Source of the DNA: Candidatus Melainabacteria bacterium 17Bon1m
Lineage (GTDB): Bacteria > Cyanobacteriota > Vampirovibrionia > Obscuribacterales > Obscuribacteraceae
Direction of reading: 5' to 3'
Assembly (NCBI GenBank): GCA_032128875.1
Contig: JAVLKG010000007.1
Coordinates: forward strand, 224,001 to 288,000
DNA: 64,000 nt
The number at the start of each line of letters is the position of its first letter. Within the stretch, counting starts at the first letter, position 1. Under the pieces are notes generated by a model. That model did no database searches. It had not been told where the DNA came from and saw only the letters and a list, made by a program, of their open reading frames with translations. Below, one piece after another: positions 21,467 through 28,302 of the stretch. Both the position numbers and the translations under genes were made by a program.

Positions 21467-23371
21467 TTACCTGGCGACAGGCCAGCTGGTGATGTAGGCG
21501 CCCCAGTTGTCGGCGACGTTCACCGACTCGACAAAGGCGATGGCGAGCTGCACCGCAGAGGCGAGCTCACGCTTTTGAATGAGCGACGGGAAGAGATCCC
21601 GAGTATTGCCCATGCAAGCGTTGCCGTTGGGATCGACGTGCGGAGCGTTCATGTTGCCGTTGCCACCAGGGACCTTGCGGGTTTTGTTGAACCACTTGAT
21701 CATGTTGGTGGAGATGTCGATTTTGATGTCGAACGCGCCGATCTCGTGCTTCAGTCCCGTGTTCGGGTTGACGCAGTAGAGAACATCGGTGCTGACGACA
21801 ATCACGTTGCCGTCCACGCGAACGCCATTGACGTTCGCCAGCGTGGTCAGCTCATCGAACTCGCGGCCGATTTCCTCAGCCGGAGCAGCTTGCAGGCGTA
21901 GGAAATCGAACTCTTCCACAAGTGCACCACGCAGGTGCGCATGGAATGTCGCCTGCGAAGCGTTCAGATCAGCAGCGCTGATCTTTTTCGATTTGCCGGC
22001 ATTGAACTGACGCGTGCATTCCTGCACGTAGTGATCCGCGACTTTGCGCGTGATCACATTGTTGTCCGCGTCCACTGCGCCCTGCACTTCTTTGCGCACT
22101 TCCAGCAACAGTTTGGCAGCCAGAGCCGCTTCCATCTTTGCACCGAAGTGGACGTAGTGCATGTGCAGGTAGAGATTGCGTCCAACAATCTCGCCGACGA
22201 TAAAGCCGTTGTCGTCGATGAGTGGCATGCCGTGAGCCGAGGGTGCGAAGGCGGTTTCGCGCTTGAGCATGCGATGCCCCCAGACTCGCTCCGGTGCCGT
22301 GAGACACGGTGCACCGATGGGCGAGGAGTGCATGAAGATGCGGAAATTGCCGTCGTTGACAGGCGTCGCGTTGAGCCCGTTGCAATCGCGAATGATCACG
22401 TTGGAATTGACGACCGGCGTGAGGATCTCGCGCACAAGTGACGACAGCACAACCAGCCGTCGGCCGGTGATGCCTTCGCCTTCTACGCGGAAGTCAGTCG
22501 TGTCGGCATTCTCCACCGCCTGATTCTCAGCTTTAACCGAGGCGATCAGGTCTTCGAGGAACTTGTCGGCAGCCAGTTCGCCGTGCACCTGCTGCAGAAT
22601 TCTGAGCAGAAGACCGGCTCGCGCCTTCAAGTTCTTACGCGTGACCAGGTCGAGGTGGACATACAAGTTGCTGTCCACCAGCTCGCCGAGCGCGAAGTTG
22701 GTGTTGGGCTCGATGATCGGCACGCCCGTTCCGGAAGCGCCGAACACCGTATGACCGGTGCTCATCTGCGCTCCGAGCAGCCTCTGCGGCGGAGTCACAC
22801 CACCTGCCAGATTCTGTGGCGTGCTGAAAAGATACAGATGGAATTTCCCGTCTGTTGCGGGAGCTGCGGCTTGACCGTTCTTCAGGTGAACGACGATGTC
22901 CTTCTTCACGCTGGGCATGAGAGCATCGTTCACCAGAGCTGCAAGGCGGCGGCGATTGAGCCGGCCTCTGAGGTCGTACCACTTGAGAGATCCAGCGACT
23001 TCGGTCTTGAAGCCGCTTAACGCGGGGTCGCGCCTTTCAGGGAAAGCGAGAACCGCTTCCTCGAATGCCCGACCGCTTGATGGGAAGACTTCGACCACGC
23101 GCGCTTTGAGCAGTCGCTTTGCCCTTGCAAATGACTGTGGGGAAAACGAGATACCGTCTTCTCCAGCTCCAGCGCTTGTTTGAGTGTAGGGGATCGAAGC
23201 CAGACGCAGCTTCTCCTTTTGCTCTTCGGTGAGCCAACGAACAAACACCTGAGAAGGTGTTCCTGGGCGACCAAAGAACAGGTGGAGATAATGCTGCGCA
23301 AAGGCGAGCAACCCGGCGACTATGAAGACGCCTGTGCCAGCCAACGCGAGAGTTTGCTGAAACTCGTTCAT
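21467..23371 (-). CDS. Long membrane-anchored E2/UBC-like protein, Cys retained
   Basis: N-terminal TM helix, internally duplicated domain, C-terminal NAPHVDPNGNACMGN (Cys codon 21614-21616). Confidence 0.72.
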   Translation of the reverse strand: MNEFQQTLALAGTGVFIVAGLLAFAQHYLHLFFGRPGTPSQVFVRWLTEEQKEKLRLASIPYTQTSAGAGEDGISFSPQSFARAKRLLKARVVEVFPSSGRAFEEAVLAFPERRDPALSGFKTEVAGSLKWYDLRGRLNRRRLAALVNDALMPSVKKDIVVHLKNGQAAAPATDGKFHLYLFSTPQNLAGGVTPPQRLLGAQMSTGHTVFGASGTGVPIIEPNTNFALGELVDSNLYVHLDLVTRKNLKARAGLLLRILQQVHGELAADKFLEDLIASVKAENQAVENADTTDFRVEGEGITGRRLVVLSSLVREILTPVVNSNVIIRDCNGLNATPVNDGNFRIFMHSSPIGAPCLTAPERVWGHRMLKRETAFAPSAHGMPLIDDNGFIVGEIVGRNLYLHMHYVHFGAKMEAALAAKLLLEVRKEVQGAVDADNNVITRKVADHYVQECTRQFNAGKSKKISAADLNASQATFHAHLRGALVEEFDFLRLQAAPAEEIGREFDELTTLANVNGVRVDGNVIVVSTDVLYCVNPNTGLKHEIGAFDIKIDISTNMIKWFNKTRKVPGGNGNMNAPHVDPNGNACMGNTRDLFPSLIQKRELASAVQLAIAFVESVNVADNWGAYITSWPVAR

Positions 23372-23424
23372 ATGGGGTCCACCTATTAACGGCGACGCAC
23401 GGCCTCATAGAGAGACACTAAAGA

Positions 23425-23453
23425 GAAGTGGCTCCCCAAGCGGGAGCCACTTC
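23425..23453 (-). terminator. Strong hairpin between the Ubl gene and the first E2-like gene (partial terminator or stabiliser)
   Basis: GAAGTGGCTCCC-caagc-GGGAGCCACTTC perfect 12-bp stem with only a weak U tract on the - strand. Confidence 0.55.
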
Positions 23454-23523
23454 GACCAACAATGTCACGTAGGAAGCCGTCGCACCTCAATGCCTTGAGA
23501 TAGCGACTGACGAGTTGACGGTC

Positions 23524-24285
23524 TTAGTTGCCGCGGACGGGGCGGAGCAAAAGAACCGTCTGGCCGTCGGTGACCGCAGTGGTCAGCGAAGCCGGCTGGC
23601 CGCTGACACGGATGTCGTAACCCGAAGCGTCGACCTCGGCCTGGCGCAGCACGGACTGGACGGTCCAGCTGTTGCCCTCGAGGACGAGCTTCTTGATGTT
23701 GCCGGGGACGCCGACGTTCACGGAGATCGTTCCGGTTGCGCCGCCGTTGTCCTTGTTCAGGTCGACGTTGCCGCGCACGGGGCGGAGCAAAAGAACCGTC
23801 TGACCGTCGGTGACCGCGGTGGTGAGCGAAGCCGGCTGACCGCTGACGCGGATGTCGTAGCCGGAAGCGTCGACCTCGGCCTGGCGCAGCACGGACTGGA
23901 CGGTCCAGCTGTTGCCTTCGAGAACGAGCTTCTTGATGTTGCCGGGAACACCGACGTTCACCGAGATGGTGCCGCCGTTGTTCTCGTTCTTGCCCAGGTC
24001 GACGTTGCCGCGAACGGGGCGGAGCAGAAGGACGGTCTGGCCGTCGGTGACAGGCGTATCGGCGTTGGACGGCTGACCGCTGACGCGGATGTCGTAGCCG
24101 TTGGCGTCGATTTCGGCGTACTTCAGGACGTCCTTGACGGTCCAGCCGTTGCCTTCGAGAACGAGCTTCTTGATGTTGCCGGGAACGCCGACATTCACGG
24201 AGATGGTGCCGACGGCAGCGGTATTGTTGGTGCCGGTGGCGGAATCGGTGGTCGTGGCCGTTTCGGGCTTGTTCAGGTTTGCCAT
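23524..24285 (-). CDS. Tri-ubiquitin-like (3x beta-grasp) polyprotein
   Basis: 25-aa leader plus three 69-aa units (24210-24004, 23973-23767, 23733-23527) joined by 10- and 11-aa linkers; each unit has the ThiS/ubiquitin-like pattern WTV..VL...IRVSGQP....V.DGQTVLLLRPVRGN; AAGGAG RBS. Confidence 0.82.
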   Translation of the reverse strand: MANLNKPETATTTDSATGTNNTAAVGTISVNVGVPGNIKKLVLEGNGWTVKDVLKYAEIDANGYDIRVSGQPSNADTPVTDGQTVLLLRPVRGNVDLGKNENNGGTISVNVGVPGNIKKLVLEGNSWTVQSVLRQAEVDASGYDIRVSGQPASLTTAVTDGQTVLLLRPVRGNVDLNKDNGGATGTISVNVGVPGNIKKLVLEGNSWTVQSVLRQAEVDASGYDIRVSGQPASLTTAVTDGQTVLLLRPVRGN

Positions 24286-25026
24286 GATGTTTAGCTCCTT
24301 TGACTTCGTACGAGAGTGAGACCGTGATCAGGTCTCGGGGTTGGTGTGTTTCCTGCTCTGTCCACAGCAATCAAAAAACCCAAGCGCGCGCTACCCCGCA
24401 GCGGTACCGCTGGTGGTGACAACAAACTATCGAACGCGAATGGGGTTGAGAGGTGGGTGAAAGAGCGAAGGGAAAAACGAGGAAACACAGGATCATGTAA
24501 CTAGCAAAGAGGCTCTTGCTATTACAACGCGCGTATATGCATGCATGTTACCTGTTATGAAAAACTCTCGCGCGCACAAACGTAGTTCTAATGAGCTTCT
24601 TGAGGTGCTGTCAAGAAATAGACTCTCGAAGATATACATATGCTTTCGAATGCTTTAACAGATTCAAAGCAGACTAGAGATTCGCGCAGTTAGATACGGG
24701 CGTGCGGAACCTTGATCTCTTGGCATTTTGTTGTTAATAGTTGTCAGTTGTTGGTGTTGCCTGTGGCGACAAGCATTTGATTGGTTTTCAAGAAAGTGGC
24801 TGTCAATAGATGTTTGGTGTGGTTTGTTTTCAAGTGCTAGCGCTGCTTTCCAAAGGTTGAAGGTCGCCGGACTGCTGCTTGACTAGTGGTTTCTCTATTC
24901 ATTTCTATATGACATCGCGAGCCAAAATTGGATTTGCCGTAACTTATTTCGTGCGCCTGAGGTATTGCTGATAGATATGCGGCTTCCTAAATAAGCAATC
25001 GCTACAGCTTTGGAGATGTCGGCTTC

Positions 25027-25124
25027 AATGACTGCTCTGCTCTTGTTACTGCTCTAATGACTCTTCTGCTCTTGTTATTGCTCTAATAACTCTTCTGCTC
25101 TTGTTACTGCTTGAATTACTGCTC
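25027..25124. repeat. 29-bp tandem repeat, 3 copies plus a partial copy
   Basis: aatgactgctctgctcttgttactgctct / aatgactcttctgctcttgttattgctct / aataactcttctgctcttgttactgcttg, with no spacers. Confidence 0.85.
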
Positions 25125-25454
25125 GCCATGTACTCCGAAATCCCGGGATTTTTCGGAGTACATGAAGAGCAGTTGCACAGCAAGCGTTTCCGGGTTTTTA
25201 GCCGTTTTGCGTAGCATCGAGATGAGATTTTGAGTCATGGTTTTATGGCCATTTCGGGACTTCTGAGGGTGTTTTCTCCTCCGAAAAATTCCGAGTTTTC
25301 GGAGTGGATGGGCGAGTTGAAATTTCAGAATGGACTCAGGGAAAAACTCGAAGTCTCCGCAAATTTTGGTCGGGCACCGTATATGGTGCCAGGTTGATCA
25401 AATTTTTTTTGGGAAGTAATTCCGGTTAGGCGCTTAAAACGAAAAAGCAATAAA

Positions 25455-25517
25455 AGTGCAAAAAATGGAAGCCATGAGTACGAGTTTGCAAAACAAACTT
25501 GGTGTACTCATGGCTTC
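25455..25517 (-). terminator. Probable terminator of the second E2-like pair
   Basis: GAAGCCATGAGTAC...GTACTCATGGCTTC 14-bp stem with A-runs on its left (U-runs on -). Confidence 0.6.
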
Positions 25518-25554
25518 CCGAATTGATCAGATTTGGTTTGCTGTGACTCTCAGC

Positions 25555-26418
25555 TCACAGCAAAGGCCACTTACTCACGTACTTGCCGTACTCGTTGGCT
25601 TCCGGGTTCTCGATGAACTGGATAGCCAGCTCGGCTACCGTAGACAGTTCCAGGCGCGCGATCAGCTCCATGATTGTGGCATGGATTTCAGCGGCGCCTG
25701 CTCTGCCGTCGGAGAACACAGTCGGCGCCTGCATGCGCTCACGCACGCCGTCGACGCGGCGGGAGTTGTTCTGCCAGCGGATGCCGTCCTCACTGCCGTC
25801 CAGATAGACGGTGATGAGAAACTGGCCAATTTCATGGCGGAAGCCGCTCTCCGGGTCTGTAGCGCAGAGAATCTCAGTCGAGATGAGGAGCCTGTTTGGC
25901 ACCACATGCACCGCCTGAACACCCTGCACCATGCGGACACGCTCCAGTTCTGCGACCAGCGTCTGTCCCGCGTTTTCGTTGCCGGCAATCTTGCTCGAGC
26001 CGAAGACTTCCGTCCGCTTGCTCGTCACAAAGCGCTGCTTGGCTGCAGAGAGCTTCTTGCGATTGCCGGAGGCGGTACTGGCAGCGGCGTCGAGAATCGA
26101 CTTCGTGCGCGACTCACAGGCCTTGATGTACCGCTTGCGATACTCCAGGCGTTCGGCTTCGCGACGCAGTGTTTCCGCATCAACTTCGTCGTTCTTGCCC
26201 TGCTCTTTTCTCTTCTTCTTGAAGGTGAGCTTGAGCTTGTAGACGTTTTCGTACTTCGATTTGCTCTTGGCGCCGGTGGCGTTCAGGACAGCCAGCACGA
26301 TGTCCAATTGCGTTTCCTCGAACATGATGCCCGAGTCCCACGGATAGTGCTGCACGCCTGCATTGGTCAGCAAGCTCAGCTGCTCATCCGTGAGGTCTTT
26401 CACTAGATAGCTTTTCAT
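25555..26418 (-). CDS. Short E2-like paralogue lacking the catalytic Cys (UEV-like)
   Basis: Aligns end to end with 20591-21451 (MKSY.V..L, YPWD, HE.G, DG.RW.N..RRV, TVAELAIQF.E, KWPL) but has DGRAGAAEI where the paralogue has DGTACIDEI; start at MKSY after AGGAGAAG. Confidence 0.72.
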   Translation of the reverse strand: MKSYLVKDLTDEQLSLLTNAGVQHYPWDSGIMFEETQLDIVLAVLNATGAKSKSKYENVYKLKLTFKKKRKEQGKNDEVDAETLRREAERLEYRKRYIKACESRTKSILDAAASTASGNRKKLSAAKQRFVTSKRTEVFGSSKIAGNENAGQTLVAELERVRMVQGVQAVHVVPNRLLISTEILCATDPESGFRHEIGQFLITVYLDGSEDGIRWQNNSRRVDGVRERMQAPTVFSDGRAGAAEIHATIMELIARLELSTVAELAIQFIENPEANEYGKYVSKWPLL

Positions 26419-26439
26419 TTTGCTTCTCCTGGGCATGCA

Positions 26440-28302
26440 TTACACCTCGCCTACGGCTTCGGGAAACAGCGAGATTCCCTTGCCCCAGGCATCCGAGGTG
26501 TTGACCGATTCGACGAAAGCAATAGCCAGCTGCACTGCTGAAGCGTATTCGCGCTTCTTGATGAGCATCGGGAAGAGGTCCTGCGTGTTCCCGAAGCACG
26601 CCTTGCCGCGGCTGGAAACATGCGGAGCATGCATTGTGCGGCTCTCCATTTGGATGGTCCTGGTCTGGTTAAGCCAGGTCACCTCCGAGTTGGAATCCAT
26701 CGGGATGGTGATCTTGAACTCGCCGATTTCATGCCGCTTGCCCGAGCGAGGATCAACGCAGTAGAGCATGTCGGTCATGATCACGATCGACTTCTGCTTC
26801 ACTTCCACCGACCGCACTTTGTACACTCGGCAGAGTTCATCGAACTCGCGCCCCAGCTCTTCAGCTCCGGAGTGCTCGAGCCGGAAGACTTCGGCGTCTG
26901 CGATCACAGCGTCGCGCAGAGCCTTGCTCAGTTCTTGCTCGCTTACAGGCTTGTCGTTCTTGCCGGCTTTGACGCTCGCTGCAATCAGTGCCGCTTCTTC
27001 TTTGAGGTCTTCCTCCGTGAAGCGCGGACCACCTGCGCGTGCAGCCTGTTTTTCCACCAGCTTGCCTGCTTGGACAAACAGTCGAGCAAGCAGCTTCGCT
27101 TCCGCTTTGGAGGCGTGCGTGAGCAGGTACTGGTGAATGTACAAGTTGTTGCCGACGAGTTCTGCGTAGATGAAGCCGCTGGCTTCGAAGAGCGGGATGC
27201 CCAGACCGGTGGGACCGAACGCCTTATCCTGGCGAATCAAGTCACAACCGAGCAGCTTCTTGGGCACGTCTTCGCCTGCGCGTCCGGCGACGGCAGAGTT
27301 GAAGAAGACGTGAAACATGCCGTCGTTGAGCGGGCGCTGCGTCTGTCCATGGCAGTTCTTCACGTGGATTTCTTGCCGCAGGTAGGGGCTGAGGAACTTG
27401 TGGATGGTGGCGCGCACAACGGCACGCTCTCCCGCTTCCTCGAAGCCCTCGTCAGCGATCGTCTGGCGACCAGCCGCTGGTGGTATCCCTTCGCCTTCCT
27501 CGGCGTAAACTTCCTGAAGGAATTGTGCCGGGTCGCGCTCTATGAGCACCCGTTGCAAAACCCGCGTCAAAAGCGCATAGCGCTGCTCTTCGCCGAGCTG
27601 CCAGAAGTCAGCGTAAATATAAAGCGCGCCCTTCGTCAGTTCGCCGACGATGTAGCCGGTGGCCGGATCGATAACCGGAGAGCCGGTCACGGAGTAGACA
27701 TACGAGTGCTGCGGCGCAACCTCGATGTCGAACACTCGCGGGGGCAATTGTTCGCGCGTGCTTGTGCGCGGAACCGTGCCGAAGAGGATGTGGAAGTTGT
27801 GGTCGTATTCGCGATCAACGCGCCCGTTGGCGTCGAGCGTCACTTTGATGCGCTTGTCCAGGCGACCGGCTAAGACCGCATGAACAACCTGTTGCACTCG
27901 CGGCGCGGTTGTTTTGTCACGCTTGTTGACCCAAACTGTAATCTGCTCGAGGTTATGGGCGTTTGCATTCTCGTGGGGGAAAGCGAGAACCGCCTCGTGC
28001 AGCTCTTTGCCGTTGAGCATCAAGGACGCTGTGTGCGTCGCATTCAGCGCGGCTAGAGCTCGGGGAAGATGGTCGTACTTGACGATGATACCGGCAGTAG
28101 CGTCCGGTGCGTTGCCGGTCTCAAACTGAACACCAGCAGCCCGTAGAGCCTCTTTGTGCGTATCTTGCAGATAGCGCATGAAGTAATTCTTCGGACGTGC
28201 CAGGTATTTCTGAAGCAGCCGCCAGGCTTTCCATCCGCCGTAACCGAGCAGAGAGATACCAGCAGCAGCTAGAGATACATAGATAATCATTTGCCAGGGC
28301 AT
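26440..28302 (-). CDS. Long membrane-anchored E2-like paralogue, Cys retained
   Basis: Aligns with 21467-23371; N-terminal TM; HAPHVSSRGKACFGN (Cys codon 26596-26598); shared DLFP.LI.KRE.ASAVQLAIAFVESVN..D.WG. Confidence 0.72.
   Translation of the reverse strand: MPWQMIIYVSLAAAGISLLGYGGWKAWRLLQKYLARPKNYFMRYLQDTHKEALRAAGVQFETGNAPDATAGIIVKYDHLPRALAALNATHTASLMLNGKELHEAVLAFPHENANAHNLEQITVWVNKRDKTTAPRVQQVVHAVLAGRLDKRIKVTLDANGRVDREYDHNFHILFGTVPRTSTREQLPPRVFDIEVAPQHSYVYSVTGSPVIDPATGYIVGELTKGALYIYADFWQLGEEQRYALLTRVLQRVLIERDPAQFLQEVYAEEGEGIPPAAGRQTIADEGFEEAGERAVVRATIHKFLSPYLRQEIHVKNCHGQTQRPLNDGMFHVFFNSAVAGRAGEDVPKKLLGCDLIRQDKAFGPTGLGIPLFEASGFIYAELVGNNLYIHQYLLTHASKAEAKLLARLFVQAGKLVEKQAARAGGPRFTEEDLKEEAALIAASVKAGKNDKPVSEQELSKALRDAVIADAEVFRLEHSGAEELGREFDELCRVYKVRSVEVKQKSIVIMTDMLYCVDPRSGKRHEIGEFKITIPMDSNSEVTWLNQTRTIQMESRTMHAPHVSSRGKACFGNTQDLFPMLIKKREYASAVQLAIAFVESVNTSDAWGKGISLFPEAVGEV

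Follow-up and report, generated by a model that had tools for sequence, protein, structure and literature searches.

Does a bacterial gene that strings three ubiquitin-like domains together encode one composite tag, or several complete tags in a single precursor, as the polyubiquitin genes of eukaryotes do? The question is posed by the polyUbl gene in a 64,000-nucleotide stretch of DNA from Candidatus Melainabacteria bacterium 17Bon1m (the window), and it belongs to a young field, that of bacterial ubiquitin-like tagging operons, in which the role of multi-domain tags is described as open by Gong et al. 2024 (bioRxiv 10.1101/2024.11.21.623966). The gene consists of a 25-aa leader and three 69-aa beta-grasp units separated by linkers of 10 and 11 aa (Table 1); each unit ends in the tail ...LLLRPVRGN, with Arg-Gly-Asn closing all three, and the stop codon lies immediately 3' of the final Gly-Asn. 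Tandem Repeats Finder reports a single array at 23527-24211 (period 240, 2.9 copies, 86% matches), within which the initial annotation had singled out 23527-23973, that is, unit 3, linker 2, and unit 2. In 16 proteins of the Obscuribacterales branch the leader (M-x-N-L-x-K-P...) resembles the start of the linkers (V-D-L-x-K...), so each repeat looks like a full copy of a monomer. A strong AAGGAG ribosome-binding site sits 9 nt ahead of the ATG, and the 1.27 kb upstream of the gene (24286-25554) is without a long open reading frame; a tandem repeat of about 33 nt was read by eye around 25040-25110. Rfam gave no match within 23300-25600, and a sigma-70 promoter scan at the Ubl locus found no promoter.

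Table 1. Features of the polyUbl locus and its neighbors, in window positions
Feature	Positions	Strand	Remarks
polyUbl gene	23524..24285	minus	253 aa; ORF list, Pfam ThiS, AF2, and Foldseek
N-terminal leader (MANLNKPE...)	24211..24285	minus	start similar to linkers
Unit 1 (type A), aa 26-94	24004..24210	minus	separate clade in unit tree
Linker 1, VDLGKNENNG	23974..24003	minus	predicted disordered; pLDDT <50 at residues 92-102
Unit 2 (type B), aa 105-173	23767..23973	minus	from unit alignment
Linker 2, VDLNKDNGGAT	23734..23766	minus	predicted disordered; pLDDT <50 at residues 171-174 and 179-183
Unit 3 (type B), aa 185-253	23527..23733	minus	protein identical to unit 2; 15 silent differences
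Hairpin, 12-bp G+C-rich stem then T-rich tail	23425..23453	minus	about 70 nt past the Ubl stop; terminator- or attenuator-like
Long E2-like protein, 634 aa	21467..23371	minus	hydrophobic N-terminal segment; C-terminal UBC-like domain, Cys kept
Short E2-like protein, 286 aa	20591..21451	minus	Cys kept; profile search
Predicted JAMM/JAB peptidase, 588 aa	18809..20575	minus	central catalytic domain flanked by low-complexity arms
E1-like adenylating enzyme, 229 aa	18022..18711	minus	one ThiF domain (Pfam 5.5e-22, residues 19-199)
ClpB/ClpA-like double-AAA+ ATPase, 821 aa	15355..17820	minus	Pfam/NCBIfam families
Second E2-like pair, upstream	25555..28302	minus	620 aa with Cys; 293 aa without Cys

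By family match and predicted fold, each unit is a beta-grasp domain of the ThiS/SAMP2 type, and the linkers that connect the units are predicted to be disordered. The polyUbl protein matches Pfam ThiS at 30.4 bits (cut-off 22.5) and an NCBIfam ThiS-like model at 8e-14, which is below that model's cut-off, and its relatives also match SAMP2 and RnfH-type ubiquitin folds. The Pfam ubiquitin family (PF00240) has no match in the window protein, and the distant relative P0034 has a sub-threshold one (24.4 versus 25.4 bits). A profile of the units aligns weakly to MoaD (E 0.17), placing the terminal Asn opposite the second Gly of the MoaD Gly-Gly. AF2 given a 24-row alignment predicts three separate beta-beta-alpha-beta-beta domains with block-mean pLDDT of 85-94 (overall mean 80, pTM 0.33; a single-sequence run reached only pLDDT 33), and pLDDT falls below 50 at residues 1-22 as well as in the linker stretches given in Table 1. 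A Foldseek search of PDB with this model returned 103 matches at E <= 0.001, the top five of which are linear tetra- or tri-ubiquitin chains (E 6e-9 to 2.6e-7), followed by ISG15, then the Citrobacter and E. coli 'multi-ubiquitin' structures 9d5a and 9cd2, and then Naegleria polyubiquitin.

The initial annotation, made by hand alignment, had proposed that units 2 and 3 are identical in protein and differ at about 15 synonymous sites, and the count is exact: the 69 amino acids are the same, 15 of 207 nt differ, and all 15 differences are both third-position and synonymous. With 55.2 synonymous sites among the 207 in this pair, the probability that 15 of 15 differences would be silent without constraint is ~2.5e-9. 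The divergence of unit 1 that had been read from the same alignment is also borne out, with 36 nt at which it departs from unit 2, spread over 12 codons with a synonymous and 12 with a non-synonymous change; 12 residues differ, including KDVLKY/QSVLRQ and SNADTP/ASLTTA. The alignment thus indicates that, since their duplication, units 2 and 3 have diverged at silent sites alone. We also considered selection for silent divergence itself, which would stabilize the repeat.

An array of this kind could be a product of assembly or of a very recent duplication, and two circumstances lean that way, since the genome and all of its relatives are metagenome-assembled and no single public contig spans the whole array. 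We give this explanation almost no credence. Units 2 and 3 are told apart by 15 fixed differences and have different linkers, and three units recur in five separately assembled genomes. Contigs from four public runs of four studies (one run may be the source sample) were mapped on 23300-24500. All four runs have contigs across both junctions, that of units 3 and 2 (for example, 23647-23862) and that of units 2 and 1 (23920-24099); these contigs show zero or one differing letter, no indels, and no alternative joints. One of the runs that contain the stretch, X2, is an RNA library, whose contigs do not prove transcription. That the duplication is not brand new, as the initial annotation held, follows from positions 27, 114, 150, and 198 of the unit, at which units 2 and 3 differ by one consistent pattern in two or three of the genomes G000 (the genome of the window), G011, and G007. 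These unit-specific sites indicate that the duplication is older than the separation of at least three species-level genomes, among which the neighboring gene has a dS of 0.26-0.50.

The silent differences had also been taken as a sign of strong purifying selection, and this is supported. The ratio of synonymous to non-synonymous differences between units 2 and 3 is 15:0 in G000, 11:1 in G011, 9:0 in G007, 9:0 in G002, and 3:0 in G008; added up over three such pairs that are roughly independent, the total is 27:0, whereas three independent orthologous contrasts give 44:17 (Fisher p = 0.001). Selection is nonetheless not the whole story, because orthologous units do vary between species, at many residues. 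Among 23 informative sites, 27, 114, 150, and 198 follow orthology, whereas others follow the genome (9 in G011, 30 in G007, and 105-146 in G008), and the four-gamete test fails for 71 of the 253 pairs that these sites form. In G008 the two units have eight sites in common, two of them amino-acid changes, and the two units of G002 share ~10 non-synonymous differences from those of G000. Gene conversion or re-duplication is needed for the same replacements to appear in both units of a genome, and these patterns indicate that one or the other, acting occasionally, keeps units 2 and 3 identical in protein within each genome despite change between genomes. Judged from these alignments, what is conserved is the within-genome identity of units 2 and 3 and not the protein between genomes. 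Purifying selection, together with conversion or re-duplication that carries accepted changes to both units, would yield one uniform type B product per cell.

The initial annotation held that unit 1 may be a functionally distinct tag; as a sequence type it is set apart by a clade of its own throughout the genus (100/99 support). Its silent changes between G000 and G011, G007, and G008 number 2, 5, and 9 over ~54 silent sites, and the dS of the adjacent gene is 0.26, 0.50, and 0.91 (loci L003-L005), so that the silent divergence of unit 1 is several-fold lower (four to six times). Strong codon or mRNA constraint, or recent exchange, are possible causes. On so slow a clock, the 15 silent differences that separate unit 2 from unit 3 represent a long span.

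The number of units was to be checked in related genomes, and it varies between 1, 2, and 3 while the operon stays the same. The Ubl protein was found in 14 of 61 related genomes including G000; 13 of the 36 genomes of the same family have it and none of the 24 from other families searched. Protein identity across the genus is only ~84%. A separate search of genome contigs with a narrow peptide pattern returned Obscuribacterales/Melainabacteria MAGs exclusively, and it speaks for these rather than for the wider family. Three units are present in G000, G011, G007, G008, and G002, two in G004, G012, and G015, and one in G020, G031, and G024, in counts that leave out L013, L014, L015, and L018, which do not match the tail pattern. 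As all these genomes are metagenome-assembled and short-read assemblers can collapse near-identical units, the two-unit counts may be underestimates. Two metagenome proteins, P0009 and P0003, have two units in sequences that closely resemble those of the three-unit G002 and G008, and they may reflect either real copy-number variation or assembly collapse. In P0002 and P0012, from other lineages, the duplicated unit is of the first type, and expansion has therefore occurred more than once.

Five genes follow polyUbl on the same strand. Both the 634-aa and the 286-aa protein have a C-terminal domain with the motif ...APHV-x-P-x-G-x-AC, and their cysteine aligns with the catalytic cysteine of E2 enzymes; searched against PDB, the profile of this domain matched E2 ubiquitin-conjugating enzymes in six of six cases (best E 0.02). 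The predicted JAMM protein has the motif E..HSH-x7-S-xx-D, invariant in 13 sequences from several genera. Pfam Prok-JAB reaches it at E 0.054, below the cut-off, and a phmmer search of PDB with the full 588-aa protein gave no match; a profile of 13 orthologs found the deubiquitinases BRCC36/RPN11 in seven of eight PDB matches (E 0.5-1.2). The JAMM and E2 assignments draw on motifs and on weak profile matches, those to PDB having E values of 0.02 to 1.2. Matches of the central JAMM domain to IMP dehydrogenase (phmmer against PDB) were at chance level and were discarded.

Beyond the JAMM and E1-like genes lies the ClpB-like ATPase, which looks like a conserved member of the operon, as in five of five other genera (G018, G024, G031, G072, and G073) a close homolog has the same orientation as the JAMM gene and sits 1-2.5 kb past it. 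The hairpin between polyUbl and the enzyme genes recurs at the same place in eight of eight orthologous loci (L003-L009 among them), with different stem sequences and, in several, a T run after it. Its conservation suggests stronger transcription of the Ubl tag gene than of the genes for the enzymes, and the hairpin is probably an attenuator that lifts expression of the tag gene above theirs.

How far does the locus resemble known systems? With eukaryotic polyubiquitin genes of the yeast UBI4 or human UBB/UBC type it shares head-to-tail beta-grasp units with one protein sequence and silent differences in their DNA, a unit number that varies between relatives, and linear ubiquitin chains as the best structural matches. 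It differs in belonging to the ThiS/SAMP2 family, in ending with Gly-Asn rather than Gly-Gly, in its leader and the linkers between units, in the ~84% identity across the genus, and in having two unit types in one gene; its processing, too, is a prediction. The likeness drawn in the initial annotation is thus right as to selection on the units, but the protein is much less conserved than ubiquitin, and the concerted evolution described above had been missed. For polyubiquitin genes, the roles of selection with concerted versus birth-and-death evolution are themselves under debate (PMC10457151).

Bacterial polyUbl proteins with two to three Ub-like domains were described, and called reminiscent of polyubiquitin, by Iyer et al. 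2006 (PMC1779556). Bub operons were defined by Ye et al. 2024, and as characterized in that paper and by Gong et al. 2024, Bub (6E) operons have a fused Ubl-E2 and JAB-E1 (type I) or a fused E2-E1 (type II). These fusions are absent from the window operon, in which the Ubl, E2-like, JAB, and E1 genes are all separate open reading frames, and BubE, the DUF6527 serine protease, has no Pfam match among 13 proteins around the Ubl gene. The Bil (BilABCD) gene set of Ubl, E2, JAB, and E1 is present together, the E2 and JAB by weak profiles and motifs; the window E1, unlike that of Bil, is only 229 aa long with one ThiF match at residues 19-199. PADLOC, run on the Ubl, E2-like, and JAB proteins, returned nothing but a chance-level match to Cas2e. 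Having no DUF6527, no fusions, and a small single-domain E1, the operon is by its gene content not a member of Bil or Bub. A limited literature search found no paper that describes the Gly-Asn family or this operon type, and supplementary operon tables of the preprints could include members. We regard the finding as a form of bacterial ubiquitin-like tagging in which the tag gene is laid out much as a polyubiquitin gene is.

SAMP2, ThiS, and MoaD are the closest sequence families, and a ThiF-type E1 adjoins the window gene; they are, however, single units with a Gly-Gly end and no E2, whereas the window gene has tandem units, Gly-Asn, and E2-like neighbors. Two-domain Ubl proteins such as ISG15 and BilA share the tandem beta-grasp domains (Foldseek E 2e-6 to 5e-5). 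In ISG15 the conjugation tail is on the last domain only and the domain number is fixed.

To see the family beyond this branch, we searched 1.84 billion cluster representatives with a profile made from 15 units and obtained 499 proteins at E <= 0.001, 154 at 1e-10, and 21 at 1e-30. Among 169 analyzed proteins of up to 500 aa, 42 have one unit, 96 have two, 25 have three, and six have four. Where the alignment reaches the end of the profile, Gly-Asn closes 145 of 145 interior units and 150 of 150 terminal ones, a count that leans toward Gly-Asn because the profile was built from units with that end; a few members have Gly-Ala instead (P0038 and P0053). Exactly half of the 150 proteins (75) stop at the Gly-Asn itself, 34 run on for one residue, 22 for two to five, and 19 for six or more; among the commonest endings none stops at the Gly. 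The units of one protein are mostly 60-80% identical, and at least 90% identical in 13 of 118 proteins; as the representatives were clustered at 50% identity, such similarity within proteins implies that duplication or homogenization recurs across the family. Some very large proteins match the unit profile in 3 to 26 stretches, among them P0032 (7296 aa, 26 stretches), P0123 (2115 aa), and P0154 (1263 aa).

At least some members of the family sit on viral contigs. Four such contigs of 30-50 kb (L047-L050) encode a two-unit Ubl with an extra C-terminal domain, next to an E2-like protein (E 7e-7 to that of the window), a JAMM-like protein, and an E1 of the same PHROG as the window's (phrog_15670). 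The viral JAMM-like gene is a 311-aa open reading frame judged by eye from fragments; a 119-aa phage open reading frame, tried as JAMM candidate, showed no relation to the JAMM profile in hhalign. A viral scan with P0043 found no relative.

The explanation that we prefer, and hold to be fairly probable, is that polyUbl is a bacterial analog of a polyubiquitin gene, encoding three full ThiS/SAMP2-type modifiers head to tail that are cut to monomers and then conjugated. The JAMM peptidase of the operon would cut the precursor at each Gly-Asn junction, releasing one type A and two type B monomers, whose tails would be adenylated by the small ThiF-type E1. The E2-like cysteine could then take over the monomers, which would finally be attached to target proteins; one E2-like protein has a hydrophobic and probably membrane-anchoring N terminus, and modification perhaps takes place close to the membrane. 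Proteins tagged in this way may then be acted on by the ClpB-like ATPase, and additional units would supply more of the type B tag. We infer all of these biochemical steps, from cleavage to conjugation to targets.

Structure prediction bears on the cleavage step. Modeled together, the JAMM domain and one Ubl unit gave a predicted complex with a score of 0.85, and the best of three controls scored 0.00; the mark used for this score is reached by 116 of 157 solved complexes and by 2 of 215 mismatched pairs. Between runs, 100% of the contacts agree, the partner's pLDDT is at least 92, and the predicted interface brings the catalytic residues E46, H111, H113, S121, and D124 of JAMM together with residues 63-69 of the Ubl tail. 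Because JAMM-ubiquitin complexes have already been solved, the score may merely mirror a known likeness; the predicted complex supports cleavage and is not proof of binding.

The mature C-terminal residue of a freed unit could be Gly or Asn. We favor Asn, since many proteins of the family end exactly there and the weak MoaD alignment points the same way. A bolder proposal builds on this: a true prokaryotic polyubiquitin system, built on a modifier family that would be new, with a mature Asn end, in which the dedicated JAMM cuts precursors of one to four units and the Hsp100-type unfoldase takes the tagged proteins. We put it forward tentatively and think it rather unlikely.

The competing explanation that we take most seriously, while considering it rather unlikely, is that the three-unit protein stays uncut, is activated only at its last Gly-Asn, and is conjugated in one piece, in the manner of ISG15 or of the Bil and Bub Ubl3 proteins, its interior tails being leftovers of duplication. 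The Ubl3 structures 9d5a and 9cd2 of Bub/Bil, from Citrobacter and E. coli, are indeed among the Foldseek matches of the window protein, and three-beta-grasp Ubl proteins of these operons are described by Gong et al. 2024 as acting whole. The same paper gives them distinct domains, the first two tightly packed, and calcium-dependent dimers and filaments, and the Ubl3 proteins of Bub (6E) and type II Bil are treated there as single modifiers, whereas the units here are near-identical, have tails of their own, and are joined by predicted disordered linkers (pTM 0.33). Interior tails that are leftovers would not be expected to be invariant across the family, as all 145 are, nor would close relatives be expected to have the same operon with one, two, or three units. 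The within-genome identity of units would likewise be hard to explain if each unit had its own place in a fixed architecture.

The remaining two readings do away with protein tagging. The JAMM peptidases of the CysO/Mec and QbsE/QbsD pathways trim sulfur-carrier precursors, and the units could be precursors of carriers of the ThiS/MoaD kind, adenylated by the E1 for thiocarboxylate formation and trimmed by JAMM; the ThiS match, the ThiF-type E1, the weak MoaD alignment, and the label 'sulfur carrier protein ThiS' given to relatives in the source databases all fit. We judge this very improbable, since the C-terminal Gly-Gly is missing, two to four E2-like genes lie in the operon, and no synthase gene was found nearby (the thiazole, molybdopterin, and cysteine synthase families have no match among the 13 neighboring proteins scanned); we also know of no sulfur carriers with tandem identical units. 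The protein could instead be a beta-grasp scaffold or adaptor that is never conjugated, with units alike only through frequent recombination, and this too seems improbable, if a little less so. Beta-grasp domains do have many roles outside conjugation (PMC1949818), and very large proteins such as P0032 match the unit profile too. Recombination alone, however, would wipe out silent differences as well, in conflict with a count of 27 silent and 0 replacement, and a scaffold would explain neither the synteny with E1, E2-like, and JAMM genes kept across genera nor the invariant tail motif.

That each unit is a functional modifier on its own is supported by an evolutionary argument, independent of biochemistry: the interior tails are invariant, the number of units is free, and protein identity is held while silent sites drift. 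If the precursor is truly cut, the polyubiquitin gene design is not a eukaryotic invention but a recurrent way to make much tag. Should the bolder proposal prove right, the system would be a bacterial and phage parallel to ubiquitin with Cdc48/proteasome, with a new activation chemistry at Asn. The invariant Gly-Asn end and the conserved ClpB-like partner pose two sharp, testable biochemical questions.

The genome of the window also carries a second, diverged system on contig C19 (loci L002 and L032). Its Ubl has two units, is ~40% identical, and ends in Gly-Asn, and it directly adjoins a JAMM gene of its own that is 46% identical to the JAMM of the window.
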